From the NCBI GenBank assembly GCA_038893995.1, contig JAWAQK010000027.1, positions 1-31,568 of the forward strand: a stretch of 31,568 nucleotides of DNA. Direction: 5' to 3'. The stretch's first letter is position 1; every line of letters starts with the position of its first letter. Source of the DNA: Candidatus Thorarchaeota archaeon (GTDB taxonomy: Archaea; Asgardarchaeota; Thorarchaeia; Thorarchaeales; Thorarchaeaceae). Position numbers and translations under genes: made by a program. A model generated the notes under the pieces. That model was given only the letters and a program-made list of their open reading frames with translations. It was not told the origin of the DNA and did not search any database. Positions 41 to 31,568 of this stretch are shown piece after piece.

Positions 41-1405
41 TTGACCATGGACTTCTACAAGGCTGCTGGCGTTTCTCCCATCGGTGACAACACACGCACT
101 CATTTCACTGCAGAGTTGTCCCCCGAGCTTGTTGGAAAATCCGTCACCCTGTTGGGGTGGGTACACACGATCCGGGACAAGGGAAAGATCAAGTTCATAG
201 TACTGCGCGACGAGCGCGGTACCGCCCAGGTCGTGGTGTTGGAAGGACGTTCGCCCAAGGATGTATTCGACACATCCGCCTTGCTGAAGCCCGAGTACGT
301 GATTGCAGTCAGGGGACAAGTTGTTGCTACAGACCAGACAAGGTCTGGAGTGGAGATCACACCCGAACGTATCTCAGTCATCAACACATCCGATCGCCTT
401 CCAATAGATGTCGTGGAGGGAAAAGTAGACATAGACCTCGACACTCGGCTTGACAACCGCATTCTCGACCTGCGGAAGCCAAGAGTCAACGCCATCTTCC
501 GCATTCAACATTCACTGGTCCGTTACGCCAGGGAATTCCTGGAAACGGAGGGCTTTGTCGAGATCCATACTCCAAAGATAGTGGCGGAGGCGACAGAGGG
601 TGGTGCAAACCTCTTCAAGATCGACTACTTCGAGCGGAAAGCGTTTCTCGCGCAGAGCCCTCAGTTCTACAAGCAGCTCATGCTTCTGGCCGGCTTCGGT
701 AGGGTGTTCGAGATAGGCCCCGTCTTTCGTGCAGAGAAGCACAATACGAGGCGCCACGTGAACGAATACACTTCCTTCGACCTCGAGATGGCGTGGATCA
801 ATGGCGCGGAAGACGTGATGAGGATGGAGGAGCGCATGCTCAACTATGCCTTCAAGAAGACTGCCAAGACTGCCTCTGCAGAGCTCGAGATGCTTGGTGT
901 GGACCTTGTTGTACCGAAAGTTCCCTTCAAGAGAATAAAGTATGTTGATGCCATCGCCCTCATCAATGAGACTGGGAAAAACATGGGTCCGACCGACGAT
1001 CTCGACCCTGAGTGCGAACGAATCCTCGGAGAGATCTTTCCACAGAAGTTCAAGACAGACATGGTGTTCATCACGCACTATCCGCTAGAGCTCAGACCTG
1101 CTTACACGATGCCCAGTCTGACTGATGAGGGAATGACAGAGAGTTTCGACCTGACATACAAGGGAATGGAGATCACTACCGGAGGGCAACGTATCCACCT
1201 CTATGACCTACTGGTGGAGAGGTTCAGGGCCAAGGGCTTCAACCCGTCTGACTTTGCCTTCTACATCGAGCCCTTCAGGTATGGAGCTCCGCCACACGGA
1301 GGTCTAGGACTGGGTATCGAGCGACTGACAATGCAGGTGCTGGGACTCGACAATATCCGCGAGGCCACGCTATTGCCGCGTGACCGAGACCGTCTGAAAC
1401 CATGA
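41..1405 (+). CDS. aspS: Aspartyl-tRNA synthetase, archaeal type
   Basis: OB-fold N-terminus (GWVHTIRDKGKIKFIVLRD), ATEGGANLF, LAQSPQFYKQ, motif 2 FRAEKHNTRRHVNEY, motif 3 PPHGGLGLGIERL and C-terminal LPRDRDRLKP. GGAGG precedes the start (TTG 41 or ATG 47). Confidence 0.97.
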   Translation: MTMDFYKAAGVSPIGDNTRTHFTAELSPELVGKSVTLLGWVHTIRDKGKIKFIVLRDERGTAQVVVLEGRSPKDVFDTSALLKPEYVIAVRGQVVATDQTRSGVEITPERISVINTSDRLPIDVVEGKVDIDLDTRLDNRILDLRKPRVNAIFRIQHSLVRYAREFLETEGFVEIHTPKIVAEATEGGANLFKIDYFERKAFLAQSPQFYKQLMLLAGFGRVFEIGPVFRAEKHNTRRHVNEYTSFDLEMAWINGAEDVMRMEERMLNYAFKKTAKTASAELEMLGVDLVVPKVPFKRIKYVDAIALINETGKNMGPTDDLDPECERILGEIFPQKFKTDMVFITHYPLELRPAYTMPSLTDEGMTESFDLTYKGMEITTGGQRIHLYDLLVERFRAKGFNPSDFAFYIEPFRYGAPPHGGLGLGIERLTMQVLGLDNIREATLLPRDRDRLKP

Positions 1406-1486: not shown

Positions 1487-2245
1487 ATGGCTGAACACCT
1501 TCACTCCGAGCTGTATGCATCAATTGCCACGCTCGACCAGCTCAAGAGAATGTACAACATGGGTGTGGTTGACGTAGTATCATTTCGAAGGGTTTCAGAG
1601 GCACTCATCAACGATGCGAGAGAAAAGCTGGAAGAGCTTCGACGGATCGGCCATGATGTCCTTCAGTTTATTCGGAGAGAGCGCATTACGGAGGAGTTCC
1701 CCGAGGCCGCTGGAATGTTGAGTCTCTCTCCTGGCTACTCATCGGACTCAAGCGGCACCGTATATCCCGAGGACTATCACAATGACATAGACCTTGCCGT
1801 ACTCGATGTGGCCAATGCACACTCGTCGAAGGTGTTCATGGGTCTCGCCGAATTGATAGTCCAGGTCGTACGGAAGCTACCTCAGTACCGTAACATCACC
1901 TATAACGATGTGATCGAGGCAGTCAACAGGGTTGCTGAGAGTGGTCTGATACCAGGTATCCGCACACTGCCGGGAGGGGTGAAGGTGGTTGGTCTCCGTC
2001 CGGTAGAACTCAGTGCAGATCAGGCGGACGTGATGGGTCTCGCAGCATCGCGAGGCTACGTCACTATCGAAGATGTGATGTTGCATCTGAGATGGTCCCA
2101 AGATCACGCACGCCAGGTACTCATGAGTCTCGTGGATGCTGGCATTGCTGTGTCTGAGATGCGCTACAGCACAGGCGGTCGCTACTACTTCCCTGGTCTG
2201 AACTCCCGTGACAACAAGACTATGTCGACCCAGAATAGTCAGTGA
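1487..2245 (+). CDS. ESCRT-II Vps22/36 (EAP30)-like protein with an N-terminal Vps28-like domain
   Basis: The C-terminal part (ITYNDVIEAVNRV...PVELSADQADVMGLAASRGYVTIEDVMLHLRWSQDHARQVLMSLVDAG...YYFPGL) follows the Vps22/SNF8 tandem winged-helix pattern. The N-terminus (ELYASIATLDQLKRMYNMGVVD...DVLQFIRRERI..EFPEA) resembles the Vps28 N-terminal domain. ATG 1487 follows GAGGTAGG; GTG 1460 is an alternative start. Confidence 0.85.
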   Translation: MAEHLHSELYASIATLDQLKRMYNMGVVDVVSFRRVSEALINDAREKLEELRRIGHDVLQFIRRERITEEFPEAAGMLSLSPGYSSDSSGTVYPEDYHNDIDLAVLDVANAHSSKVFMGLAELIVQVVRKLPQYRNITYNDVIEAVNRVAESGLIPGIRTLPGGVKVVGLRPVELSADQADVMGLAASRGYVTIEDVMLHLRWSQDHARQVLMSLVDAGIAVSEMRYSTGGRYYFPGLNSRDNKTMSTQNSQ

Positions 2246-2948
2246 CCCTCAACTTGACTGCTCCCAACCTCTGGTCGACCCATGTCGCCTGTTTTCTGTC
2301 CACCAGACGTTCCATGATGAGGTGTAGTTCGTCCTCCGGCAACGATGAAAACACCTGATCCCTCTCCTGAATCACAATACTCTTCACATCCAACAGCATG
2401 TTGCCAGTGTCGAGCGCCCACTTGTATATCTCGTCGACCCAATCTTCGAGTGATTTCCAGTAGACTCGGAGTCTAGTGTGGTCGCGGTCGAGCCATTTGG
2501 CAGCACCCGTTCTGACCATGTGGTCCCCTATGAGCGAATACGCCTCGATTCTCCTGCTGAATTCCCTAAATGGAATCTCAGACATGAATGTCGACCTTGA
2601 AAGAATGTGTATTCCTCTCGATCTCATCCAGTCATTCACAAAGTCCGCCCACTCCGATGCCCAACTGGCTATGCTCTTCTCATCGCTGGGGATTGAATAC
2701 ATGTGTCCAGCATCGTCTGCCGTGCCCCATCTCGGCAGGAGCAACGCTTGAGCACTCTCAATGGTCCTGTTCTCCGTGATCCCAGGTACCATCTGACCAG
2801 TCTCAGTTCGGTCTACGAGCGGTGACGACCCAGTATCACTCCTCGTTTCCGATTCTGCAGTTGTTTCTGTCATGTTCCCCTGGTGATCGCTCTCGTGAGT
2901 GTTCCTTTCTGGGCCCCTCCTTCTTTGTCTCTCACGTTCCGTGGTCAC
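2220..2948 (-). CDS. vps25: ESCRT-II Vps25-like protein
   Basis: WASEWADFVNDW...AKWLDRDHTRLRVYWKSLEDWVDEIYKWA...FSSLPEDELHLIMERL matches the Vps25 winged-helix pattern. The GTG start at 2948 overlaps the vps4 stop (GTGA). The N-terminus is low-complexity. Confidence 0.88.
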   Translation of the reverse strand: MTTERERQRRRGPERNTHESDHQGNMTETTAESETRSDTGSSPLVDRTETGQMVPGITENRTIESAQALLLPRWGTADDAGHMYSIPSDEKSIASWASEWADFVNDWMRSRGIHILSRSTFMSEIPFREFSRRIEAYSLIGDHMVRTGAAKWLDRDHTRLRVYWKSLEDWVDEIYKWALDTGNMLLDVKSIVIQERDQVFSSLPEDELHLIMERLVDRKQATWVDQRLGAVKLRVTDYSGST

Positions 2949-4171
2949 TGCTGTCCGCTCTCCGCCCAATCCATATACTTCCTGAGAATATCGGGAGAAG
3001 TGGCTGGCCGCACCTTCTGGATGGCCAACAGAAAGTCTTCCCTGTCGACCGGTCTCACATCCACGACCTCTCTATCAGCTGTACCACTCCTCTGGAGATC
3101 ACGTATGGGCTCCATTGCTGCATCTCTACAGACTACGCTTATGTCCCTTCCACTGTACCCCTCTGTGAGGTCGGCCAGCTCATCAAAGTCTACATTTGGA
3201 GCGACCTCTATGTCCTCCATATGATACTGAAATATTGCCCTCCTAGAATCCCTTGATGGGAGAGGTATCAGGATCTTCTTCTCGAATCTAGACACCAGAG
3301 CAATGTCCAGATGCCACGGGAGGTTCGTTGCTCCGATGACAGTCACCCTCTCGTTATTCCTGCTTGTCACTCCTTGAATCTCGGTCAGCATCTGGGTCTT
3401 CAACCTCCTCTCAGCGCCTATGTCATATCCTGATCTCGACGCTCCAATGGAGTCCAGCTCATCTATGAAAACTATTGATGGCTGATTTGCTCTTGCCATC
3501 TCAAACAGGGTCTTCACGAGCCTCTCCGACTCGCCGAACCATTTGCTGACCAGAGTTGCAGATGAGACATTGAAGAATGTCGCATTGGTTTCGGCAGCGA
3601 CAGCCTTTGCTATGAGGGTCTTTCCGCATCCTGCAGGGCCGTAGAACAGTATACCCCTCCAGGGTTGCCTCGTTCTACCTCGGAACAACTCCGGATGTTT
3701 CATGGGCATGATCAATGCATCGTAGATTGCCTGCTTTGCCTCCTCCAATCCGATTACGTCCGACATCCTGACATCTGGCTTCTCCCTGACTACGGTCCCT
3801 TCAAGCATGCTCTGGAACTGATCATCATCGTCACCATCATCACTTCGTTTCTTCTCTTCGTCCTCGTCAGTCCTCGGAAGTGGCCTCGGCATGCGCGTTT
3901 CTGATGTGGTCTTTGCATGAGATGAGGACGTGGCCTTGGATCGAGTGGTCCGCTTGATGCCCGAGAGAACGTAGACCCTGTCTACACACTCTTGAGCCCT
4001 GTCGAAGTAGAACTTCCTCGTCGACGGCAAAGAGGCAGACTTCGAACACTTCAGCAGTATCTTGCTGGCTCGCAGATAGTAATGGCATGCCTCCTTGCTC
4101 ATGCCGCGTTTGTCAAGATCGATCGCTCTGTCCAGTAAGGCCCTCAGTCCCTTGTCCACACGGTCTGACAT
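2945..4171 (-). CDS. vps4: Vps4 AAA+ ATPase (MIT + AAA)
   Basis: MIT helices (LDRAIDLDKRG..KEACHYY), acidic linker, EKPDVRMSDVIGLEEAKQ, PWRGILFYGPAGCGKT, LVSKWFGESERLVK, Walker B IVFIDELD, GATNLPW and TEGYSGRDI. Confidence 0.96.
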   Translation of the reverse strand: MSDRVDKGLRALLDRAIDLDKRGMSKEACHYYLRASKILLKCSKSASLPSTRKFYFDRAQECVDRVYVLSGIKRTTRSKATSSSHAKTTSETRMPRPLPRTDEDEEKKRSDDGDDDDQFQSMLEGTVVREKPDVRMSDVIGLEEAKQAIYDALIMPMKHPELFRGRTRQPWRGILFYGPAGCGKTLIAKAVAAETNATFFNVSSATLVSKWFGESERLVKTLFEMARANQPSIVFIDELDSIGASRSGYDIGAERRLKTQMLTEIQGVTSRNNERVTVIGATNLPWHLDIALVSRFEKKILIPLPSRDSRRAIFQYHMEDIEVAPNVDFDELADLTEGYSGRDISVVCRDAAMEPIRDLQRSGTADREVVDVRPVDREDFLLAIQKVRPATSPDILRKYMDWAESGQQ

Positions 4172-4312: not shown

Positions 4313-4927
4313 TTGAGGACACTCAGAAAGGCTCTCACATGGGCTCGCGGTAAGCCCAACGTCAACGAGATAATAGTCAGCCTTCGGAACATCTCGAGAC
4401 AACTAGAGCGGGAGCGTAGGCACCTGGAGAGGGAGGAAGCCTCTATCATGGAGATGGCAGTCCAAGCACGTCAGGCAGGTCATGCGGAGGCATACTACAC
4501 CTACGCATCTGAGATCGCTCGATTCAGGAAACATATCCTTGCAATCGACAAGACTCGGTTCCAGATACTGCGCCTGGCAGCTCATCTTAAGAGGGCACAG
4601 GCCAGTGCACAGGCCGGTGTCGCACTTGAACAGGTGTCTCGTGTCCTTGGAGTCTTGAGGAGCGCGATCGACAGCAGACGGCTGGTTGAGAACGTCGATG
4701 AGATCTCGCGCCAACTGGATGCGCTGCATGTTGAGAGTACAATATCCGAAGAAGCCATGGGCATGGTTGGCGGTGTTGATGTGTCGCAGGAAGATGTGGC
4801 CTCCGTGATGGCTGAAATAGAGCGAAGCACAGGGTCCTCTCCGATCAGGGCTGAGATGGGCTCTACTGACAAGATCAAGAATCTGGAAGAGGCAATTGAG
4901 TCGTTGGAACGTGATCTTGGAGTCTGA
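4313..4927 (+). CDS. ESCRT-III subunit, Snf7 fold, Vps2/24/46-like class
   Basis: 204 aa and all-helical, with a basic N-half and acidic C-half. It contains RQLERERRHLEREE..AVQARQAG...YASEIARFRKH and a C-terminal MIM1-like helix (IKNLEEAIESLERDL). It is divergent from vps4. Confidence 0.9.
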   Translation: MRTLRKALTWARGKPNVNEIIVSLRNISRQLERERRHLEREEASIMEMAVQARQAGHAEAYYTYASEIARFRKHILAIDKTRFQILRLAAHLKRAQASAQAGVALEQVSRVLGVLRSAIDSRRLVENVDEISRQLDALHVESTISEEAMGMVGGVDVSQEDVASVMAEIERSTGSSPIRAEMGSTDKIKNLEEAIESLERDLGV

Positions 4928-4939
4928 CTGACTCCCAGG

Positions 4940-6517
4940 TCAGAATGTATACTGACGCAAGTACTCGTCCATCCTTCTCCTCATCGTATATCGCTCACGC
5001 ATGAGTGACCTGTATCTGGAGACAAAATCGTCCGTCATGAGCCTACCCAGCCTGAGATCTTCGATTGACCTACTGATGGCCCGATCCAGCTGGTCTGCCT
5101 CCTCTCTGAACCTCCTAAGTAAATCATCCTCTGCTCGACGGTAACCGTACGTGTCGTAGGTCCTTGGTTCCATCCGGTCCAGGCTCGGAAGTCCACTGCT
5201 GATGGGCATCCGTCTTCTGGCCTCGTAGTCCCAGGGTGGAAACCAGCGACCGTTGGTACGATCACCCGTCAATTCCCGTTCGTTGAGTCGCGATCTGTCG
5301 TGTGGCGCGAGCGATGTCCTCCTTGAGGAGAGTAGCGTATATACAAGGTCGTCAATCTTGAGCTTCACGTCGCTGGCAGCCACATCCACCTGCTCGAGCC
5401 TGCGCACTCTCTGAAGATCAGTCTGCACATAGCGATCGAACCTCTTGGCAATCTCGATATAGTCTGTCAATACCTTCTGAGTATGCTCTGAGCATGCAAT
5501 CTTCACATCTCCCTGCTTCATCTTGAGCACGAGATGCCGTCTTATTCTACCGTCCTCCTCGATGGAATTCAGGTACATCAGAGGGAAGTCGAACACAACA
5601 CCAGTCGTCTTCCTGAGTCTTCCCGTTTCCGCGATGAAGACCATCCTCTTATTTGTCACATAGAGCTCTCCCGTGCCATGGTCGGCCCTGAGGAAATCAC
5701 TTCCGATCAATCGGACCTCCGGGATGGCACAGATGGGCAGCTCATTCACTGCAAGCTCAGAATGCTGATAGAATCCAGCAAATTCCCTCCTGTGATAGTC
5801 AAGTCCCTCGAGGTGCTTGATGAGTTCTTCGAGTTCCCTGAGTGATGGCTCGACGGTCTCGTCGACGGTCTGCCTGTATTGGTTCCCAATCTCTGTGATC
5901 CTTCTGGTCAGTCCTTCGATAAATGGAAACTGCTCGATATCCCATGTCTCTTGATTCATGAATCCGTTAGTTTCAGCGGCGATTCTTCTAGCAACAATGT
6001 CGGCCTGGCTCACAATCCTATTCTTGATCAGGGGCACGCCATCGAGCAGTCCCTCGAGCTTGTCCTCGAGCCAGTTGAACGCAAGGAAGTTTGCCATCCT
6101 GATCGAATATAGTAGCCTCTTTGCGAGCATCAATCTGTTGGCAAACTCCCTGAACTTGACATGACCGTGTTGAATCAACATGATTGCGTGTCTCAGGTCG
6201 CCTGCGAGCTTTCGTCTCCTCTCCTCTATCGATATCACCCGTGTGGAGAGGCATCGTGGACATACCTGTTCCGTTCTCCTCCCAGACCGGATGTTCTTCG
6301 ACCCGCAGCTCGGGCACTTTGGGTCGGAGCTCTTGGCATCTGGACCAAGATGACCATGACAGTCACCACAGACGAGATACTGTGTGGTCTTGGTCCTGAG
6401 ACAGTCAGGACAGAGTACTGCACCACAGTCCTGACACATGTTGATGGCCCCAGCATTCTGACAAGAGACACACACATTCGTCTTGTGGTCAGCTTTCATT
6501 TCACGTGCTTCTTGCAT
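4940..6517 (-). CDS. Multidomain protein: Zn fingers, coiled coil, PH/GRAM-like domain and C-terminal Vps23/Vps37 steadiness-box-like hairpin (putative ESCRT-I subunit)
   Basis: Six CxxC pairs (aa 16-88), a long helical region, GELYVTNKRMVFIAE..VVFDFPLMYLNSIE (GRAM/PH-like) and C-terminal EADQLDRAISRSIEDLRLGRLMTDDFVSRYRSLMRERY. It is adjacent to the ESCRT-III gene. Confidence 0.7.
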   Translation of the reverse strand: MQEAREMKADHKTNVCVSCQNAGAINMCQDCGAVLCPDCLRTKTTQYLVCGDCHGHLGPDAKSSDPKCPSCGSKNIRSGRRTEQVCPRCLSTRVISIEERRRKLAGDLRHAIMLIQHGHVKFREFANRLMLAKRLLYSIRMANFLAFNWLEDKLEGLLDGVPLIKNRIVSQADIVARRIAAETNGFMNQETWDIEQFPFIEGLTRRITEIGNQYRQTVDETVEPSLRELEELIKHLEGLDYHRREFAGFYQHSELAVNELPICAIPEVRLIGSDFLRADHGTGELYVTNKRMVFIAETGRLRKTTGVVFDFPLMYLNSIEEDGRIRRHLVLKMKQGDVKIACSEHTQKVLTDYIEIAKRFDRYVQTDLQRVRRLEQVDVAASDVKLKIDDLVYTLLSSRRTSLAPHDRSRLNERELTGDRTNGRWFPPWDYEARRRMPISSGLPSLDRMEPRTYDTYGYRRAEDDLLRRFREEADQLDRAISRSIEDLRLGRLMTDDFVSRYRSLMRERYTMRRRMDEYLRQYTF

Positions 6518-11300: not shown

Positions 11301-11581
11301 CGGGAGATGGCCCCACTTCCATGGACCTCTCGGAATACGCTCATAAACCAAGCGATACTCGGCAGATCACTTGTCCGAATTCAGTCAAAGTAGCATCGGT
11401 TTCTCATGGCCCGAGAGCCTGTCTGGAGTCTTTCCGACCGCCAGTATATGGAGGACTCACCTGGTCGGTGCAAATACTTATTTACCTTTGTTCCATCCGA
11501 ACAGTAACGCGCGTCACCACTTCCAACTCACGCCAACTTCAGTTGCATTGGTTCCCAGCCTTAGCTGCAGGCTTGGCTCAG

Positions 11582-12565
11582 ATGGCACCGTGGGAGATGA
11601 TCCGACTGGTCAGCAGACTGATTAAGACCCCCGATAGACCTCGCGACAGAAGCCTCACACCATCCGGGCAGGTCTGTCCAGTGTGTAGCTCCACTGAAGT
11701 CCACATCGATTTGACCCGTGGCGAAGTGATATGCGCCGGCTGCGGGCTGGTTCTCTCGGACCATTCCATTGATATGGGTCCAGAATGGAGGGCATTCACA
11801 GCAGATGAGCAGAATGCTCGTCAGCGTGTGGGAGGTCCAACTGACTGGAGCAAGTTCGATCAGGGCTTGACAACAGTCATTGGTAACCAGAACGTGGACG
11901 CATCCGGTCGCAGACTCAATTCTAACCGACGGGCACAGATAAACAGGCTTCGTAAGTGGCAGATACGCACCAAAGTTCACTCCTCTGACAAGCGCAATCT
12001 TGCAGTCGCAATGACGGAGCTTCATCGCATAAGCTCCCAGCTCAGTATTCCTTATTCTATCCGTGAGACCTCAGCCGTCATCTACAGGAAGGCCCTCCGC
12101 AAGCGTCTCACGCGCGGACGGACGATCCTGGGTATGATTGCAGCCTCTCTCTATCTTGCCTGTCGAGTCCATCAGGTTCCACGTCCCCTTGAGGAGGTCG
12201 TGGAACAGATACACATCACTCGAAAGGAGCTGAGCCTGTGCGTACGACTCATACTTCGACATCTGAACCTCAAGATCCCGTTCTCAAACCCCGTTGAGTT
12301 TGTCCACAGGTTTGGCATGGAACTGAATCTGCCTGGCGAGACCCGACGGAAGGCAATCGACATTCTCAGGATGGCACGCGAGGAGCATCTCACGATAGGA
12401 AAGGATCCAAAGGGGATGGCGGCTGCAGCCATCTACATCTCGAGTATTCTGACAGGCACAAGGCGGACCCAGCTGGAGATCGCAAGAACTGCTAGGGTCA
12501 CTGAAGTGACTGTCAGGAATCGCTACAAGGAGATAGTCGAGAAGCTCAACATAACTACCACCTAG
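11582..12565 (+). CDS. tfb: Transcription initiation factor IIB (TFB)
   Basis: Zn ribbon CPVC...CAGCG, IDMGPEWRAF, RLRKWQ and two cyclin repeats (GKDPKGMAAAAIY, VTEVTVRNRYKE). The start is uncertain (ATG 11582 or 11597). Confidence 0.95.
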   Translation: MAPWEMIRLVSRLIKTPDRPRDRSLTPSGQVCPVCSSTEVHIDLTRGEVICAGCGLVLSDHSIDMGPEWRAFTADEQNARQRVGGPTDWSKFDQGLTTVIGNQNVDASGRRLNSNRRAQINRLRKWQIRTKVHSSDKRNLAVAMTELHRISSQLSIPYSIRETSAVIYRKALRKRLTRGRTILGMIAASLYLACRVHQVPRPLEEVVEQIHITRKELSLCVRLILRHLNLKIPFSNPVEFVHRFGMELNLPGETRRKAIDILRMAREEHLTIGKDPKGMAAAAIYISSILTGTRRTQLEIARTARVTEVTVRNRYKEIVEKLNITTT

Positions 12566-12666: not shown

Positions 12667-13518
12667 ATGATGCATGTCTTGTCCTCGAAACGGTTCATTC
12701 ACGGTGCGTGGTTGATAGAGAAGGACACAGGGAGGACCATGGTCTCACGTGTATACGACCGTACCGAGATCGATATGGACCTGATAGGACCATATCTCTC
12801 AGCCACTCACACCTTCATAGACAGGGCCTCCAGGGAATCGCTCAAGACAATAGATACCGAGAGCAGCAAGTTCGTGTGGGAGACCACAGACCAGCTTCTG
12901 CTTGTGATGGCGGTATCGAAGAATGCACGTCCTGCTCACATCCGTTTTCTTCTACGCTACTGCATCAACGAATTCATGTCTAACCACATTCCCCCCGGCG
13001 AGACCCTCTCCACGATGCTGAAGAGTTGGACCGGCTCTGCTGACACATTCCAGTCGTTTGCCAACTTCCTTGATGAGCTTGTGGAGCAGTACGAGTCCAC
13101 AGACGAGAGTCTTGTGGCCAGCAAGTCGATGGACTGTCTTGAGGTGTACAACCATCTGTTTCGGTCCCTTATGTCTGTCAAGGTCGACCATGAGCTGCGA
13201 GAGAGGCTCGTCAGTGAGATCAGTCGGGCAATGGAACCGCTGATCAAGAAGTACCCGTTCTTGTCAAGGGCAACAGTCGACACGGCCGGCATTGAGGCAC
13301 TTGACATCGATGTCGCAAAGTCTGTCGTCGAATACCGGGTCTTGAGAAAGGCGCTTGAAGAGCTGTTTGTCGTGGTGACGCAGATCATCAAGAGGACGGT
13401 CGATACGTCAGCGTTCCGTAACATGATATTTGACCATGTGATGCCCTACGTGAAACGGGACATGGATCGGCTCCAGACATATGCCATTCTCGACAACGTC
13501 ATTCGGAACATCTTCTAG
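12667..13518 (+). CDS. Longin-like domain protein with an uncharacterised helical C-terminal domain
   Basis: IHGAWLIEKDTGRTMVSR...DMDLIGPYLSATHTF...LKTI...LLLVMAVS...FM..WTG..DTFQSF follows the Asgard longin pattern. The start is uncertain. Confidence 0.7.
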   Translation: MMHVLSSKRFIHGAWLIEKDTGRTMVSRVYDRTEIDMDLIGPYLSATHTFIDRASRESLKTIDTESSKFVWETTDQLLLVMAVSKNARPAHIRFLLRYCINEFMSNHIPPGETLSTMLKSWTGSADTFQSFANFLDELVEQYESTDESLVASKSMDCLEVYNHLFRSLMSVKVDHELRERLVSEISRAMEPLIKKYPFLSRATVDTAGIEALDIDVAKSVVEYRVLRKALEELFVVVTQIIKRTVDTSAFRNMIFDHVMPYVKRDMDRLQTYAILDNVIRNIF

Positions 13519-14849
13519 GTCTTGCAGAGGGTGATGACCTCTCGTTGTACAATCTGCCCTCTCTTCCTCTCAGGTAGGGCAGGCCTGTCCTCTCTGAGTT
13601 TCTTGGATATGACACCGCGATTGTCGACAACTCTGTCACGGGGGAACGGGTCGCATACGCGGAACCCCGTGTCCCTCGTCATCTCTGCGAGGTCTATGCT
13701 GACAGGGCCCAGTTCTGTGCTGACTACGGGCAGGGTCATCGCGAGTTTTCCCTTGGGTTTGAGGATATTCGAGAGACTCCTCAATGATTCCTGATAGAGC
13801 TGAGTGAGGGCAATCATGCTCTTCTGGGCCTCATCCCAAGTGGGGATGTCCTTGTACACTGGTCCAAGTGGGGGCTCTGAAACTATGGCGTCAAAGACCC
13901 GTTCCAGTATCTGATGTGCCCTACGGGCATCGCCCCTGACCACGCTGAACCTCAGTCTGTCTCCGATAATACTTCCGAGCCATCTCATGTTGCTCTTGGT
14001 GCCATCGATCGCGCGGGGGTCGATGTCCAACCCGACACACTCGATGTCAAGTAGTGCCGCCTCCATCAGTACGGTCCCAGTACCACAGAATGGATCGAGT
14101 ATGACCTGCCCAGATCGGACACCGGCGAGATTCAGTAGAGCCCTACAGAGCTTTGGGCTCGTCGTTATCTCTGCGACCACGTAGGGCCTGTTCTCATCCC
14201 GGTGACGCTGAAAGATGGAATCGTATACAGCAGCAGTCTTACCGACATATACTGAGCTCTCAGTGAAGGCAAGGATGATCTCCGCGTTGGGCGGCCTGAG
14301 CAGTCCGTGTCTTGCCAGGGTATGGGGCCAGAGCGCAGTGTTCGGTCGTTCAGGGTCTCTCCTGTCTGGGCCCTCGTACACGTAGTATGATACCTTCTTG
14401 GCTCCCCTCTCGGTGAGCATGTCCTTGACTGTCTCATCGATGCCAAGTGTCAGTTTTCTGAGGTCCACTCTCGATCTCTTGGATACTGGATATGTACTCA
14501 CAGCGAATCTCACAGTCTTCCTCCTGGCATCCTTCCACACAGATCCCAGCCATCTGCAGGATAATACTTCCCGTCTGGCTTCGAGGTCAGCTCGACCACT
14601 CTTCGGAAACGCACGGATGACCGTCTTTGCATCGTATGTGTCGATGACGGTGGCTGTCTTGTAGCATCCGCCCAGTGAGGACTGAATCTCGACGAGCCTA
14701 TCCACGTCGAGCCGCTTCTCAGTTTCGTATATGCATACGTTTCTTGAGAAGTCCACAACCCGTCCTGGGACATCGTTGTTGTCCATGCACGCGATGAGTT
14801 CGGCGACTGACAAGAGCCAGTTCTTTCCCAGGACGAATAGGTATTGCAC
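13515..14849 (-). CDS. trm11: tRNA (guanine-10-N2)-methyltransferase, Trm11/Trm-G10-like
   Basis: N-terminus YLFVLGKNWLLSVAEL, SPKLCRALLNL, ILDPFCGTGTVLMEA, GLDID, GDAR and IVSEPPLG. The GTG start at 14849 overlaps the upstream stop. Confidence 0.85.
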   Translation of the reverse strand: MQYLFVLGKNWLLSVAELIACMDNNDVPGRVVDFSRNVCIYETEKRLDVDRLVEIQSSLGGCYKTATVIDTYDAKTVIRAFPKSGRADLEARREVLSCRWLGSVWKDARRKTVRFAVSTYPVSKRSRVDLRKLTLGIDETVKDMLTERGAKKVSYYVYEGPDRRDPERPNTALWPHTLARHGLLRPPNAEIILAFTESSVYVGKTAAVYDSIFQRHRDENRPYVVAEITTSPKLCRALLNLAGVRSGQVILDPFCGTGTVLMEAALLDIECVGLDIDPRAIDGTKSNMRWLGSIIGDRLRFSVVRGDARRAHQILERVFDAIVSEPPLGPVYKDIPTWDEAQKSMIALTQLYQESLRSLSNILKPKGKLAMTLPVVSTELGPVSIDLAEMTRDTGFRVCDPFPRDRVVDNRGVISKKLREDRPALPERKRGQIVQREVITLCKT

Positions 14850-15691
14850 TACTCCTCGCTCTCCCTGATCATGTGATATAGCTGTTTGACATAGACTGCT
14901 CCCGTGACCGGATCGGGGGTCTCTGATATGAACGTTGGACTGTATCCCCTCTCCACAACAAGCCTCACAAGGGGAAATACATCCGGTCCCCACTCCCCAC
15001 CCATGGGCCTGTGTTCTCTCTCCCCCGTGTCTCCAAAGGTGATGCCGCTCACGTGGAAATGCATGTTGTTGACAAAGCGTTCTCCCAGTTCGCGCTCGAA
15101 GGTGTCCAGCACTCTTGCAAAGTCCTCGGCCCCGAGGTTTCCCTGGTTGCGCGCGTAGAGGTGCGCCCAATCGATCGTCGGCACACAACGGTCTATGTCC
15201 TGGCAGAGTCGGAGGATCTCCTCTAGAGATCCAAAGGCATTTGTCTTCCCTGCCGTCTCGGGACATAACAGGGTCTTGTTGTCGGCATCGATAGCCTCGC
15301 ATATAGACCTCAGCGAGTCTCTGACGATGGGATATGCCTCCTCCGGAGTCAGCCCACTGTAGCTTCCGACGTGAAATACCAGTCGCCTCACCGACATCAG
15401 AGGTGAGAGCCTGAGTCCACGCACTAGCCTGGCCCTCGACCTGGCTCTGATCTGTGGATCCTTTGAAACGAGGCTTATGTAGTATTCCGCGTGCATGCTC
15501 ATCAATATCCTGTGTCTGTCCGCTGCCTCGCCGATGGCTCGTGCGCCACTCTCGTTGACTCTGAGACCGTAGACCGCCTCGTACTCCAATGCATTGAGTC
15601 CCAGTTTGTTGAGCAGGTCGAGTGCAGTGTCTGTGTCCTTGGAACCCTCAGGATACCCCGCCGGCCCAAACCTCACATCGGTCACGGTCAC
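14849..15691 (-). CDS. nfo: Endonuclease IV (AP endonuclease family 2)
   Basis: VRFGPAG, SMHAEYYISL, VFHVG, PETAGK..FGSLEE, IDWAHLYAR, HFHVSGI, EHRP and ISETP. The start is a GTGA overlap with the upstream stop. Confidence 0.92.
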   Translation of the reverse strand: MTVTDVRFGPAGYPEGSKDTDTALDLLNKLGLNALEYEAVYGLRVNESGARAIGEAADRHRILMSMHAEYYISLVSKDPQIRARSRARLVRGLRLSPLMSVRRLVFHVGSYSGLTPEEAYPIVRDSLRSICEAIDADNKTLLCPETAGKTNAFGSLEEILRLCQDIDRCVPTIDWAHLYARNQGNLGAEDFARVLDTFERELGERFVNNMHFHVSGITFGDTGEREHRPMGGEWGPDVFPLVRLVVERGYSPTFISETPDPVTGAVYVKQLYHMIRESEE

Positions 15692-16194
15692 TCCTCCAGC
15701 GAGAACTCCCATGCACAATAGGCGTGATCCGGGTGTGGATCTGGTGGGCAGAAGACGCACTTAGTCCTTATGCGCGGGTCGACGGTCTTTGCGAACTCCT
15801 CGTACTCGATCATGCCCACCTGTTTGCAGGGGAAGTCGGGGAGTCCCTTGCGGTTTCTGGCGGTCTGGACCCTGCAAGACTCCATGGTGAACAGTAGCCT
15901 ATTGTCGTCTAACCATCTTGTGGACTGCTTGTTGAGTGCAGCATAGACCCTGTATTTGAGGGCCTTCTCAAGCGCCTTCAGTCCTCCATTTGCGGTGATT
16001 CCGAATTCCTTCATTATTCGGGATGCCTCGATAGGTGAGAATATCCTCCATGCTGCCTTATCGATCTCGATGGCAACGTCCATGCCGTACTTCTCCTCAA
16101 GTGAAAGAAAGTAGGCACCGTCCATCGCTTGCCACGCCTTTGCGAACATGTCAACGATCTTCAGTAGCTCCTCCTTTGAACACTCTTCGAACAT
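15688..16194 (-). CDS. DUF6125-like protein (ATC-hydrolase/V4R-like fold)
   Basis: AKAWQAMDGAYF..EEKYG.D.A..ID..AW, CRVQTAR..KGL..FPCK and CVFCPPDPHP..YCAWEF. Confidence 0.75.
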   Translation of the reverse strand: MFEECSKEELLKIVDMFAKAWQAMDGAYFLSLEEKYGMDVAIEIDKAAWRIFSPIEASRIMKEFGITANGGLKALEKALKYRVYAALNKQSTRWLDDNRLLFTMESCRVQTARNRKGLPDFPCKQVGMIEYEEFAKTVDPRIRTKCVFCPPDPHPDHAYCAWEFSLEE

Positions 16195-17244: not shown

Positions 17245-18045
17245 CTAGTGTACTTGCCAGAACGTCAGAATGAGAATTGCTGTGCATATGGCAGAGATCG
17301 CAAATGCCCACGAAGTTGAGGTATTGTGCACTTCCCTGATACCGAAGGCCAAGATGAACCCGACCCATATGAACGAGGCGGTGGTCAGGTAGTCTATGAT
17401 GACGAATGCGCCCGACTGAAACACAGTCGTCACGATGTATGTTGTACCATATTGCTCTACTGACATCTCTGGAATCGTCAACATCAGGATGAGGACTCCC
17501 AGCAGCCTTGCCAGTATCACAGGCACCAAGCTGTATCCGACGATCATCATGGACCTGCCGTACCTTGCAGTACCGCCGGCTATCTTCAATATGACATGAG
17601 CAGCTCCGGCACCTATCGTCAGGTAGAGCATACCCAGAATCAAGTTGGGGACGATTGTGAATAGCCCTACGCTTATTACTCCCGGTGCGACAGGGCTAGA
17701 CAGAAGACCAATCGCGACAGGTTCCTCATCAACTATGTAGTTCAGCGTCAGTTTGGAGCACACTGCAAGGAATGCCGCTGTCATGATCAGTGCGTTGAAG
17801 AGGACTACAACGGCAGGACCCCTGCCATCCGGTCGTCGAGCGATGTCCCGGAATGTAGCAGCCGGCCTGATCAAGACTCCTATTATCCTACCCACGAGCC
17901 CGAGCGTCTTGACGTCCTCTGCAAGTGGTCGTTTCAGAAATGGGAGTACTCTCTCGAGAATCTCTTCGGCTATCTTCTGTCCGCAGACGGGACAGACAGT
18001 TGCGTCCGAGGGTACTGGACTGTTGCAGGCGCTGCATCTTCTCAC
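17245..18045 (-). CDS. Zinc-ribbon + Yip1-domain membrane protein
   Basis: N-terminal CSAC..CPVC, GVLIRPAATFRDI, LKIAGG..YG..M.IVGYSLVP, GIREVH and about 5 TM helices. Confidence 0.8.
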   Translation of the reverse strand: MRRCSACNSPVPSDATVCPVCGQKIAEEILERVLPFLKRPLAEDVKTLGLVGRIIGVLIRPAATFRDIARRPDGRGPAVVVLFNALIMTAAFLAVCSKLTLNYIVDEEPVAIGLLSSPVAPGVISVGLFTIVPNLILGMLYLTIGAGAAHVILKIAGGTARYGRSMMIVGYSLVPVILARLLGVLILMLTIPEMSVEQYGTTYIVTTVFQSGAFVIIDYLTTASFIWVGFILAFGIREVHNTSTSWAFAISAICTAILILTFWQVH

Positions 18046-29711: not shown

Positions 29712-30686
29712 CTAGGATCTCACCGCCTTCCTATAGACATCCCACATCGTACCCCTCTTCGTGTCTATTGACCTGACCTTCCCGCCTCCCTTCACCACGG
29801 ATTCGACTATTGTAGGAGTCGCTGTTTCTGCGTCTTTGACAAGAATGACAATGGTATTACCCTGCACACGGACCTCCTCCGCTATCTCTAGATTTCTTAC
29901 TGTTTCAACCAGTTGCGGCGTTGGCACTTCTTGCAGCTGGACCTGTATCTCTTCACCGCTAGAGACCCTTGCTGCAAGTTCCCTCGGAGTTCCAGCAGCG
30001 ACTATCTTCCCTCTCTGGATGATGCACACTCTGTTGCAGAGCTTCTCCGCCTCATACAGATTGTGTGTTGTGATGAACACGACCTTCTCCTCTGCACGCA
30101 GAGTTCCTATGAGATCCCATATCTCCTCCGTCATTATGGGGTCTAGGTCTGCGGTCGGGCTGTCCAAGAATATCACTTTCGGGTCGTGAATGAGTGCCCT
30201 CGCGAAGGCGACTTTCTTTGCGGTCCCCCTACTGAGATGACCTGCGAAACGATTCTGGTACTCTGTCAAGCCGAAGTACTCGATGAGTTCTGCAATCCGC
30301 CTCGACCTCTTGTCCCTGGGAACCTCATATATGCCCGCGTAGAACTCAAGATTCTCCCTGACGGTGAGCCGTGTATAGAGACATGTGTTCTCAGTGAGGA
30401 CTCCACATATTTTCCGAACCATGTGGGGGGATTCAATCACATCGATACCGTCGATGCTAGCATGACCTGAAGTGGGTCTTATTGCACCAGCCAACATCCT
30501 CACGGTGGTGGTCTTTCCTGCCCCGTTGGGTCCCAGGTATCCGAAGACGTCGCCCGGTTCCACATCGAAGCTGACTCGATCTACAGCCACGAGTTCCCCA
30601 AAATGCTTTGATAGATCCCTCGCCGAAATCAAGAATGGTCTAATCCCACTGCTGACTTTGACAGACGTCTGGCAAAGACTTCTCAT
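29712..30686 (-). CDS. ABC exporter ATP-binding protein (DrrA/NatA-like)
   Basis: GPNGAGKTT, LTVRENL, LSRGTAKKV, IFLDSPT and TTHNL. Confidence 0.92.
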   Translation of the reverse strand: MRSLCQTSVKVSSGIRPFLISARDLSKHFGELVAVDRVSFDVEPGDVFGYLGPNGAGKTTTVRMLAGAIRPTSGHASIDGIDVIESPHMVRKICGVLTENTCLYTRLTVRENLEFYAGIYEVPRDKRSRRIAELIEYFGLTEYQNRFAGHLSRGTAKKVAFARALIHDPKVIFLDSPTADLDPIMTEEIWDLIGTLRAEEKVVFITTHNLYEAEKLCNRVCIIQRGKIVAAGTPRELAARVSSGEEIQVQLQEVPTPQLVETVRNLEIAEEVRVQGNTIVILVKDAETATPTIVESVVKGGGKVRSIDTKRGTMWDVYRKAVRS

Positions 30687-30858
30687 GATACTGTAGGGAG
30701 AGTCATTTAAGGGTTACCGCTCGACTACAACCAATATCTCCCATAGAGTTTCAGGAACAAGTCTCTTTGCAGGATTGTGCGGATACAGCAGCACCTTGTA
30801 AAAGACGACCATTGCCATTTGCGTTCGTGATAGACTCTTGCGGAGGTGGTCATGTTAG

Positions 30859-31568
30859 ATGAGCGCCCCGAGAAATAACATTCCACGTTTCGGATTGGTC
30901 CTGCCAACTTACGGCACTGGGTTCGACTGGAAACAGACAGTTACCGCTGCATGCCTAGCCGAGGAACTCGGATATGACTCCCTGTGGGTTCCCGACCATC
31001 TGGTGTCCCCAACAGGTAGTGGTGGTTGCTTTGAGGGGTGGACCGTCTTGTCTGCACTTGGTACCGTGACAAGCAGGATTGAGCTAGGCACGTTCGTGCT
31101 GTGCAATCAGTTCAGACACCCCTCCTTGGTCAGTAAGATGGTTTCAACACTGGACCATCTTTCGTGTGGACGGTCTGTGATGGGGATTGGTTCATGCTCT
31201 CTTGGACGTGAACATGATGAGTTTGGTATTGAATGGGGCAGCAGGACCTGATCGCATCGGCAGACTTCGGGAGTCTATTCAGCTTATCAAGACGCTCTGG
31301 ACTGAGCACAGCGTCACCTTCGAGGGGAAGTACTATCAGACTCTGAGTGCATCCGCCAATCCGATGCCGGTACGGAGGCCTCACCCCCCAATCATTGTCG
31401 GAGGTCGTTCCAGGGCTATCATGGATGTCGCTACGGATCTTGCAGATGGATGGGCCCCCTACTTGCTTGACCCTGACGGACTGAGTGTTCGTATTGAATA
31501 CGTCAAGACTCGTTTGAGAGATATAGGTAGACCTCTTGGTGATTCCGAGATTATTTACGGTGCGGACC
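30859..31568 (+). pseudogene. LLM-class (luciferase-like, probably F420-dependent) oxidoreductase, frameshifted near 31235-31250 and truncated by the window end
   Basis: AEELGYDSLWVPDHL and FRHPSLVSKMVSTLDHLS.GR, then a stop at 31249-31251. Homology continues in the +1 frame (DRIGRLRESIQLIKTLW...FEGKYY...PHPPIIVGG...ADGW), which stays open to the end. Confidence 0.8.

Follow-up and report, generated by a model that had tools for sequence, protein, structure and literature searches.

The Znr_CC_PH_SB family and its Thorarchaeota ortholog

The closest described relatives of the protein studied here come from two publications on Asgard archaea. Makarova et al. (2024, mBio; PMC10936438) named the family Znr_CC_PH_SB (asCOG cog.011556), proposed it as a likely ESCRT-I component and expected its PH domain to be located at the membrane. 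The three N-terminal zinc modules are called zinc ribbons in that paper, and the steadiness-box hairpin is related there to CdvA by HHpred, the architectures of the two proteins being described as similar. Hatano et al. (2022, Nat Commun; PMC9192718) included the Thorarchaeota protein ThorAB25_08990, as the 'SB' protein, in their yeast two-hybrid screen; they reported that Loki SB interacts with Vps22, and wrote that in both Loki and Thor the SB protein, which is freestanding, 'may interact with Vps28'. The legend of their Supplementary Figure 8, dealing with the ESCRT-I proteins of Loki GC14_75, includes RING, CC and PH among the domain labels. A lack of ubiquitin in Thorarchaeota has also been published.

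Here, we analysed a window of 31,568 nucleotides (the whole stretch of DNA under study) from a Candidatus Thorarchaeota archaeon. It contains an open reading frame, P0001, whose domains and neighbouring genes are listed in Table 1. The start of P0001 is likelier to be at M7 (nt 6499), as in the database gene call, which would give a protein of 519 aa. The gene is single-copy in the window genome.

Table 1. Features of the P0001 locus (positions in the window)
Feature	Position	Strand	Basis or remark
Vps22-like ESCRT-II subunit, EAP30 domain	1487..2245	+	Pfam EAP30
Vps28-N-domain-like N-terminal hairpin of the Vps22-like protein	1487-1756	+	Profile comparison
Vps25-like ESCRT-II subunit	2220..2969	-	Pfam ESCRT-II, E 1.9e-12
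Vps4 AAA ATPase with MIT domain	2945..4171	-	Pfam AAA, MIT, Vps4_C
Snf7-family ESCRT-III subunit	4313..4927	+	Pfam Snf7
P0001, Asgard Znr_CC_PH_SB member	4940..6517	-	525 aa, stop-free translation
Helical hairpin, Vps23-type steadiness box (predicted), residues 458-525	4943..5146	-	AlphaFold2 and family profile
Pro/Arg/Tyr-rich disordered linker, residues 398-457	5147..5326	-	AlphaFold2, pLDDT <50 over 401-457
PH-like domain, GLUE/GRAM type, residues 258-376	5390..5746	-	AlphaFold2, VIA-align, Foldseek, Pfam
Helical stalk/bundle, three long helices, residues 97-252	5762..6229	-	AlphaFold2, pLDDT mostly >90
Zinc module, six CxxC pairs, residues 16-89	6251..6472	-	Read from sequence

P0001 is the Thorarchaeota ortholog of the published, Asgard-only Znr_CC_PH_SB, and the protein is already known. 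Its membership in cog.011556 was established via the sequence of Hatano et al. and synteny. A homologue, P0055 (E 1.6e-151 against P0001), agrees in its first 21 and its last 20 residues with the sequence printed for ThorAB25_08990|SB (PMC9192718), a protein to which P0001 is about 48% identical, and the ThorAB25 gene order (08990 SB, 09000 ESCRT-IIIA, 09010 Vps4, 09020 Vps25, 09030 Vps22) is that of the window. A Loki-type homologue, P0113 (E 4e-29 against P0001), lies in a locus arranged as L35Ae - X - MetE - Snf7, which is the arrangement published for cog.011556 in Lokiarchaeum GC14_75 (PMC10936438). We found 98 homologues at 43-57% identity, the named ones being mostly from Thorarchaeota; across the 301 Asgard genomes searched the family was matched in 219, and within the window genome's own family in 69 of 70. 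The sequence-only reading had presented P0001 as a candidate novel ESCRT-I adaptor. This part of it fell, since both the architecture and the inference drawn from it had been published as Znr_CC_PH_SB, cog.011556 (PMC10936438), and a Thorarchaeota ortholog had already been used in the yeast two-hybrid work (PMC9192718).

The ESCRT cluster of the window reads Vps22-Vps25-Vps4-Snf7, and the Snf7 gene is convergent with that of P0001, with a gap of 12 nt between them. In the window and in loci L006-L011, which come from Thorarchaeota, Lokiarchaeota and other Asgard archaea, a Snf7 gene adjoins the adaptor gene or lies within a few kb of it, and some of the six loci examined show this proximity with no ESCRT-II gene nearby. 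Snf7 is the neighbouring gene in L006, L008, L009, L010 and L011, and the conserved linkage also takes in ESCRT-II and Vps4 genes. The linkage is kept across deep divergence, down to 20-30% identity. Conserved linkage to ESCRT-III, named in the sequence-only reading as a check on its assignment, is hence borne out in all these lineages.

Domain architecture of P0001

Searches with P0001 as a single sequence against Pfam, NCBIfam and PDB sequences returned nothing beyond sub-threshold zinc-ribbon matches; the domain signals were therefore detected via family profiles, together with an AlphaFold2 model of mean pLDDT 80.9. The Pfam models for UEV, EAP30 and CdvA gave no match in P0001. Six CxxC pairs, a stalk, a beta-rich PH-like segment, a Pro/Arg linker and a terminal hairpin had been read from the letters before, and all of them were recovered within a few codons of where they had been placed.

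The CxxC pairs of the zinc module lie at C16/19, 28/31, 36/39, 50/53, 68/71 and 86/89. Among 52 homologues C50-C89 are invariant and C28-C39 at least 90% conserved. As judged from sequence, six pairs would be enough for three Zn sites. Pfam matches to this region were all sub-threshold (DZR, E 0.012-0.033; DZR_2; B-box, E 5.7), with the ribbons scoring better, and precomputed zf-B_box matches exist in a few homologues. The modules are putative N-terminal ribbons or B-box-like fingers. The stalk that follows was modelled as three helices (97-142, 148-183 and 194-245).

The PH region was modelled as a seven-strand sandwich (261-341) with a capping helix (344-376). By VIA-align its best structural match was the MTMR2 PH-GRAM domain (Z 12.7, rmsd 2.6 A over 104 aligned residues, 20% identity); the EAP45 GLUE domain was matched at Z 10.8, and many PH domains at Z 10-12.7. 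By Foldseek the first match was the EAP45 GLUE domain 2hth_B (E 2.5e-5), and the Vps36 PH domain 2cay_A was found at E 1.4e-4. The GLUE/GRAM-like character given to this domain by the sequence-only reading thus stands, with EAP45/Vps36 GLUE and MTMR2 PH-GRAM as its closest structures. Pfam matches per member point the same way: bPH_3 in 50 of 52 members, GRAM in 38 of 52 (counted at E <=1; best relative 1.9e-4) and Vps36 GLUE in 17 of 52, the GRAM score of P0001 itself being 12.1 bits against a cut-off of 23.6. Foldseek with the full-length model placed DH-PH RhoGEF modules first; these were rejected as not homologous, the PH part alone superposing (TM ~0.2, rmsd ~20 A for the full length).

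The 60 residues of the linker include 6 Pro and 12 Lys/Arg. It is poorly conserved and of variable length among family members, and no short motif was seen to be conserved in it.

The terminal hairpin, made of two helices (458-489 and 495-524 in the model), has G-x-L-x-x-D-x-F as its conserved core. This agrees with the G-x-[LI]-x-x-D-x-F pattern noticed earlier, G491, D497, F498 and L505 being invariant or nearly so. When the family profile of the hairpin was compared with 177,635 PDB sequences, the Vps23 core headed the specific matches: yeast Vps23 core 2p22_A at E 0.004, 2f66_A at 0.018 and 2caz_A at 0.053, followed by TSG101 (6vme_B) at E 1.2. Matches in this range (E 0.004-1.2) are marginal as sequence evidence. 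Member by member, Pfam gave Vps23_core in 27 of 52 hairpins (best 5e-5) and Mod_r in 15 of 52; the resemblance of the hairpin to the Vps23 core and Mod_r is below threshold yet consistent over the family. These profile matches and counts sustain the ESCRT-I-like assignment of the sequence-only reading. The hairpin of P0001 itself matched Mod_r alone (E 0.033, 14.6 bits against a cut-off of 30.1, model positions 91-143), with no Pfam match to Vps23_core. A Mod_r match of the same hairpin in a genome scan (E 0.19) was set aside as non-specific by itself, weak matches being present in 11 of 14 control genomes. In a set of 86 divergent representatives, 31 carry the hairpin at their extreme C-terminus.

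Predicted docking and alternative readings

The profile of the Vps22-like N-terminus matched yeast Vps28 N-domain structures in the PDB (E 0.04-0.075), and positions 2-76 of Pfam VPS28 matched the Vps22-like orthologs in 6 Thorarchaeota genomes, below cut-off. Complex prediction for the adaptor hairpin together with this N-terminus gave a score of 0.79, while the best of three controls reached 0.01. Of 80 solved complexes 58 attained this score mark, as did 2 of 110 mismatched pairs; these counts hold only roughly, since own alignments were used. The runs agreed in at least 91% of contacts with a partner pLDDT of at least 78, and the predicted interface draws on the residues that are best conserved in each hairpin. 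The prediction supports docking of the hairpin on the Vps22-like N-terminus, as likeness and not as binding, and its score may stem from the predictor's familiarity with the Vps23-Vps28 core solved for yeast (2f66, 2caz, 2p22), to which the predicted complex is similar. An hhalign comparison of the two hairpin profiles (adaptor against Vps22-like) found no similarity (probability 2%). At the level of profiles the two hairpins are not detectably paralogous, which says nothing about their binding.

In the window genome, which is 91% complete, Pfam gave no UEV match anywhere at E <=1 and nothing above cut-off for ubiquitin, VPS28, Vps23_core or Mod_r; the genome-wide Vps23_core scan returned one unrelated match, at 11.6 bits. 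The ubiquitin result is in line with the published lack of ubiquitin in the phylum. With neither a UEV domain nor a ubiquitin gene detected, targeting by the adaptor is probably independent of ubiquitin.

We consider it likely that P0001 acts as an ESCRT-I-like adaptor of the Znr_CC_PH_SB type, placed upstream in the pathway. Its GLUE/GRAM-type PH domain, perhaps together with the zinc module, would place it on a membrane or cargo. The flexible linker would let the C-terminal Vps23-type hairpin pack against the Vps28-N-like hairpin, which in the Thorarchaeota lineage would be joined N-terminally to the Vps22-like subunit encoded four genes off. Recruitment of Snf7 and Vps4 would follow through ESCRT-II (Vps22/Vps25). 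That the adaptor recognises inositol lipids or some non-ubiquitin signal, as the sequence-only reading suggested, is pure inference; the sequence gives no indication of specificity for a lipid or a cargo. A bolder version of this mechanism, to which we give less than even credence, is that in ubiquitin-less Thorarchaeota ESCRT-I and ESCRT-II are hard-wired by the docking of the hairpin on Vps22, with the zinc and PH modules reading a non-ubiquitin signal (lipid, protein or nucleic acid). If so, a Vps22 homodimer could give a three-hairpin headpiece, and the assembly would be an upstream layer of ESCRT that is minimal and possibly ancestral. Parts of such an assembly are published; its docking geometry, which comes from modelling, and its ubiquitin independence are proposals.

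The statement that the window genome has no Vps28 has to be qualified, because a family-wide VPS28 scan led to P0308, a divergent Vps28-like protein of 410 aa encoded on contig C1 (29915-31141). The hairpin could dock on this protein and not mainly on the Vps22-like N-terminus, in which case a Vps23-like and a Vps28-like subunit would make up an ESCRT-I closer to that of eukaryotes, and this complex would contact ESCRT-II. The P0308 family is conserved across Thorarchaeota, Pfam VPS28 is found in 28 of its 40 members (best E 2.9e-5, none above cut-off), its profile matches the Vps28 C-terminal domain 2j9w_A at E 0.021 (profile positions 111-191), and the remark of Hatano et al. on Vps28 (PMC9192718) is in keeping with such a partner. 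However, the window genome's own P0308 gives no VPS28 match at E <=1, its gene is unlinked to the ESCRT cluster, and no Thor Vps28 is included in the six ThorAB25 proteins listed in that publication. Moreover, the PDB match of the P0308 family is to the Vps28 C-terminal domain only, whereas it is the Vps22-like N-terminus that matches the Vps28 N-domain. We therefore regard P0308 as the main partner as unlikely, though worth keeping in mind.

Rather improbable, in our opinion, is that the adaptor is a functional analogue of CdvA, i.e., a membrane-bound recruiter that positions ESCRT-III/Vps4 for division or vesicle scission, and not a cargo-sorting ESCRT-I subunit. The Snf7 gene is convergent or within a few kb in 6 of 6 loci examined, even where no ESCRT-II gene is near, Thorarchaeota lack ubiquitin, and the HHpred likeness and similar architecture described by Makarova et al. 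(PMC10936438) fit this idea; against it, the Pfam CdvA model does not match P0001, the best hairpin matches are to Vps23, and the predicted partner belongs to ESCRT-II rather than to ESCRT-III. The question here is one of cellular process, and the CdvA-like role is compatible with docking of the hairpin on Vps22.

If the zinc module were a RING- or B-box-type, E3-like domain, the adaptor would modify its targets instead of only binding them. We judge this very improbable: the RING, CC and PH labels in the legend of Supplementary Figure 8 (PMC9192718), the zf-B_box matches of a few homologues and the B-box match of P0001 speak for it, but neither ubiquitin nor UEV was detected in the window genome, the Pfam matches are sub-threshold with the better ones being DZR ribbons, and the modules are zinc ribbons according to Makarova et al. 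(PMC10936438). Least credible of all, and already disfavoured, is a generic zinc-finger/PH protein outside ESCRT whose steadiness-box likeness arose by chance, since, common as helical hairpins are and although every hairpin sequence match stays below curated thresholds, the Vps23 core comes first among the specific PDB matches, Vps23_core recurs in more than half of the family members, Snf7 linkage is retained at low identity and the complex prediction stands well above its controls.

What is new here is the Vps28-N-like N-terminus of the Vps22-like protein, the predicted docking, the absence of UEV and ubiquitin by Pfam and the divergent Vps28-like protein.

Comparison with known ESCRT and Cdv components

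In comparison to the published Znr_CC_PH_SB proteins, P0001 has the same order of parts (three zinc sites, helical region, PH, linker, steadiness box) and the same neighbourhood, and does not differ from them in kind. Longer linkers give the Loki-type members a greater length (650-700 aa). Like Vps23/TSG101, the adaptor ends in a putative steadiness box with the G-x-[LI]-x-x-D-x-F core, preceded by a stalk and a Pro-rich linker, and its hairpin is predicted to pack on a Vps28-N-like hairpin. Vps23/TSG101, however, carries a UEV domain for binding ubiquitin and P(S/T)xP, in place of which the adaptor has zinc fingers and a PH domain with no UEV; its long heterotrimeric coiled coil has as counterpart a compact three-helix bundle in our model, and neither a Vps37 nor an Mvb12 partner is known for the adaptor.

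With Vps36/EAP45 the adaptor shares a PH domain of the GLUE/GRAM subgroup, and with yeast Vps36 the presence of zinc fingers in the same protein. To this extent the yeast Vps36 parallel drawn by the sequence-only reading is justified; it fails in the arrangement, the zinc modules of the adaptor being N-terminal whereas the NZF fingers of yeast Vps36 are inserted in the PH domain. The adaptor is also without EAP30 winged helices, which are encoded by the separate gene at 1487-2245, and the steadiness box is absent from Vps36. The family matters for the origin of ESCRT in that it joins in one protein modules that are found apart in eukaryotes, on ESCRT-I (steadiness box) and on ESCRT-II (PH and zinc fingers). 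Such joining in a ubiquitin-less lineage is already in the literature, and the window adds one ortholog and a testable docking prediction, not a discovery.

MTMR2 shares the PH-GRAM fold, which shows no shared ligand, and differs by its phosphatase domain, absent from the adaptor. Finally, like CdvA of TACK archaea, the adaptor would be an upstream, membrane-associated recruiter whose gene lies beside ESCRT-III/Vps4 and which combines a coiled coil with a hairpin, that of CdvA being the one likened to the steadiness box by Makarova et al.; CdvA, unlike the adaptor, has a PRC barrel and a C-terminal peptide that binds the CdvB winged helix, and the two show no sequence match.

Domain architecture of P0001

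The gene under study, whose product we refer to as P0001, is present in a single copy in its genome. Translation gave an uninterrupted ORF of 525 aa; a start at M7 (nt 6499), favoured by the database gene call and by the start of all family alignments, gives 519 aa. Six CxxC pairs lie at nt 6251-6472; across 52 homologues the final three never vary, and C28-C39 is kept in at least 90%. The domain order is seen in the AlphaFold2 model built on the 52-homologue alignment (mean pLDDT 80.9; see the table), and the linker, poorly conserved, holds 6 Pro and 12 Lys/Arg per 60 residues. The sequence-only reading had described zinc fingers, a coiled coil, a PH-like domain, a Pro/Arg-rich linker and a terminal hairpin, and all of these elements, with their coordinate ranges, were borne out by the ORF translation, the CxxC positions, the model and the linker composition. 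Searches with the single P0001 sequence returned nothing beyond sub-threshold zinc-ribbon matches.

Segments of P0001 (residues) and genes of the window (nucleotides)
Feature	Position	Strand	Remark
Zinc region of P0001	residues 16-89	-	small beta elements, AlphaFold2 model
Three long helices of P0001	residues 97-142, 148-183, 194-245	-	AlphaFold2 model
Seven-strand sandwich of P0001	residues 261-341	-	AlphaFold2 model
Long helix capping the sandwich	residues 344-376	-	AlphaFold2 model
Additional helix of P0001	residues 382-397	-	AlphaFold2 model
Disordered stretch of P0001	residues 401-457	-	AlphaFold2 pLDDT <50
C-terminal helical hairpin of P0001	residues 458-489 + 495-524	-	AlphaFold2 model
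AspRS	41-1405	+	cluster neighbour
Vps22-like EAP30 protein	1460/1487-2245	+	cluster gene
Its N-terminal 90 residues	1487-1756	+	helical hairpin
Vps25	2220-2969	-	cluster gene
Vps4	2945-4171	-	cluster gene
Snf7	4313-4927	+	cluster gene, before P0001 gene
P0001 gene	4940-6517	-	between Snf7 and TldD/PmbA genes
TldD/PmbA genes (two)	beyond P0001 gene		cluster flank
TFIIB ORF	11321-12565	+	414 aa
Methyltransferase ORF	13515-15302	-	595 aa
TIM-barrel ORF	14849-15760	-	AP endonuclease/xylose-isomerase-like
Yip1-domain membrane protein	17245-18045	-	N-terminal zinc ribbon

The PH region was tested against Pfam for each member of its alignment (n = 52), and every match was below cut-off: bPH_3 in 50/52, GRAM in 38/52, PH-GRAM_MTMR6-like in 25/52 and Vps36 GLUE in 17/52. 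Modelled alone, the domain reached a pLDDT of 83.8. Its closest structure by VIA-align was the MTMR2 PH-GRAM domain (Z 12.7, rmsd 2.6 Å, 104 residues aligned), followed by many further PH domains at Z 10-12, including EAP45 GLUE at Z 10.8; the top Foldseek matches were EAP45 GLUE 2hth_B (E 2.5e-5), MTMR2 and yeast Vps36 PH 2cay_A (E 1.4e-4). When the profile of the C-terminal hairpin was compared with PDB sequences, the yeast Vps23 ESCRT-I core was the sole specific family (2p22_A, E 0.004; 2f66_A, 0.018; 2caz_A, 0.053; TSG101 6vme_B, 1.2), and the region aligned in the Vps23 core is the steadiness box. In Pfam, Vps23_core matched 27 of the 52 members (best 5e-5) and Mod_r 15 (best 9.7e-5), the hairpin of P0001 itself matching Mod_r only (E 0.033). 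These matches are singly weak, yet taken together they consistently suggest a steadiness box.

A published Asgard family and its gene neighbourhood

P0001 belongs to a family already in the literature, 'Znr_PH_CC_SB' or 'Znr_CC_PH_SB' (asCOG cog.011556; Makarova et al. 2024, PMC10936438). According to that paper, three zinc ribbons come together in it with a PH domain, a coiled coil and a steadiness box, and the family occurs in several Asgard lineages, is missing from eukaryotes and is probably ancestral. The authors regard it as 'a likely ESCRT-I component' and write that the PH domain 'is expected to be membrane associated'. In a table of that paper, the member from Lokiarchaeum GC14_75 has 650 aa and is flanked by L35Ae and by MetE/Vps20. 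The sequence of ThorAB25_08990 appears, under the label 'SB', in Hatano et al. (2022, PMC9192718), who list it with 09000 (ESCRT-IIIA), 09010 (Vps4), 09020 (Vps25) and 09030 (Vps22), all included in their yeast two-hybrid screen; in the legend of their Supplementary Figure 8, on Loki GC14_75 ESCRT-I proteins, the domain labels include RING, CC and PH.

P0001 is tied to both papers because of three observations. A homologue with 48% identity to P0001 (P0055, E 1.6e-151) is identical to ThorAB25_08990 over its first 21 and last 20 residues; the ESCRT gene order of the window is that of ThorAB25; and the locus of a distant homologue (P0113, Promethearchaeota, 692 aa, E 4e-29), L35Ae - ATP_bind_1 - X - MetE - Snf7, mirrors the published Loki locus. 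The initial proposal of an ESCRT-I adaptor was right in substance, but the protein is not novel, the family having already appeared in both papers (PMC10936438, PMC9192718).

The source of the window is an Asgard archaeon of the Thorarchaeota type, and the named close homologues are all from Thorarchaeota or Promethearchaeota MAGs. All-against-all HMMER searching yielded 84 representative clusters, 65 of them at E ≤1e-10, with identities down to 20-30% and lengths of 460-1171 aa. The PH domain was found by the Thor PH-region HMM in 73 of 86 representative proteins, and the Thor hairpin HMM matched 31 of the 86, in each case at the very C-terminal end of the protein. Of 301 Asgard genomes with a completeness of 80% or more that were scanned with a profile, the family was matched in 219 genomes, 57/76 genera and 69/70 genomes of the window's own family, while several Asgard families had no match; its distribution is therefore wide but not universal. 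The gene stands at the edge of the ESCRT cluster and this linkage is conserved: Snf7 adjoins it or lies within a few kb in 6/6 loci examined, and the locus of a 53%-identical homologue (L008), on a 235-kb Thorarchaeota contig, is fully syntenic.

In the Vps25-like protein, some 95 residues precede the ESCRT-II domain (Pfam residues 101-190) as an N-terminal extension; this extension is acidic, Thr/Ser-rich and probably disordered, and the TTG start is uncertain. The remainder of the window holds housekeeping and transport genes, and ARAGORN found no tRNA across its whole length. In the TFIIB ORF the zinc ribbon comes as late as residues 118-159, and the syntenic homologue in L008 has 324 aa, so the ORF is either over-extended or an N-terminally extended copy. 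The methyltransferase ORF overlaps the TIM-barrel ORF by about 450 nt; its start is probably over-called, because the syntenic homologue in L008 has 445 aa. The Yip1 family is linked to eukaryotic vesicle trafficking.

Putative partners of the C-terminal hairpin

The N-terminal hairpin of the Vps22-like protein is conserved, and its profile matches the yeast Vps28 N-domain of ESCRT-I core structures (2f6m_B, 2f66_B, 2p22_B, 2caz_B; E 0.04-0.075); Pfam VPS28 positions 2-76 also weakly match the orthologs in six Thor genomes. Judged by these profiles, the gene would effectively be a Vps28N-Vps22 fusion. Complex prediction for this hairpin and that of P0001 gave a score of 0.79 (best of 3 controls, 0.01). 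The mark it reached was also reached by 58/80 solved complexes and 2/110 mismatched pairs, counts that are rough because own alignments were used. The similar yeast Vps23-Vps28 core is already solved, so the pass may be carried over from that structure and is evidence of likeness only. The runs share at least 91% of contacts, with a partner pLDDT of at least 78, and the predicted interface (P0001 residues 485-514, Vps22-like residues 3-40) is made up of the positions that are best conserved in the two hairpins. As a prediction, the modelling supports binding of the P0001 hairpin to the Vps22-like N-terminus but is no demonstration of it.

A second candidate partner was found elsewhere in the genome (2.33 Mb, 82 contigs). 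VPS28, Vps23_core, UEV and ubiquitin gave no above-cut-off match in this 91%-complete genome, which for ubiquitin agrees with its published lack in Thorarchaeota. When 40 genomes of the window's own family were scanned, proteins of about 410 aa showed full-length, sub-threshold VPS28 matches. This family, conserved in Thorarchaeota, matches Pfam VPS28 in 28/40 members (best 2.9e-5, all below cut-off), and its profile matches the Vps28 C-terminal domain 2j9w_A (E 0.021); the resemblance to Vps28 involves a divergent N-terminal half, and a few relatives carry precomputed BAR-domain matches. Contig C1 of this genome bears an ortholog of 66% identity (29915-31141, minus strand; L015:1498-2745), and a divergent Vps28-like protein is therefore present. 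Its gene is not linked to the ESCRT cluster, and the protein is a candidate alternative or additional steadiness-box partner.

In the mechanism we propose, the PH domain, perhaps aided by the zinc module, would target membrane or cargo, and the flexible linker would allow the Vps23-type hairpin to dock with a hairpin of the Vps28-N type carried by Vps22 or by the Vps28-like protein. ESCRT-II would next recruit Snf7 and Vps4, in a process that may be sorting, vesicle budding or division.

The sole new element here is the predicted docking of P0001 onto the Vps22-like protein. The Vps28-N-like hairpin of the latter fits the steadiness box that Makarova et al. (2024, PMC10936438) describe as fused to Asgard Vps22 proteins, and the yeast two-hybrid interaction of the Loki SB protein with Vps22 (Hatano et al., PMC9192718) points the same way as the complex prediction.
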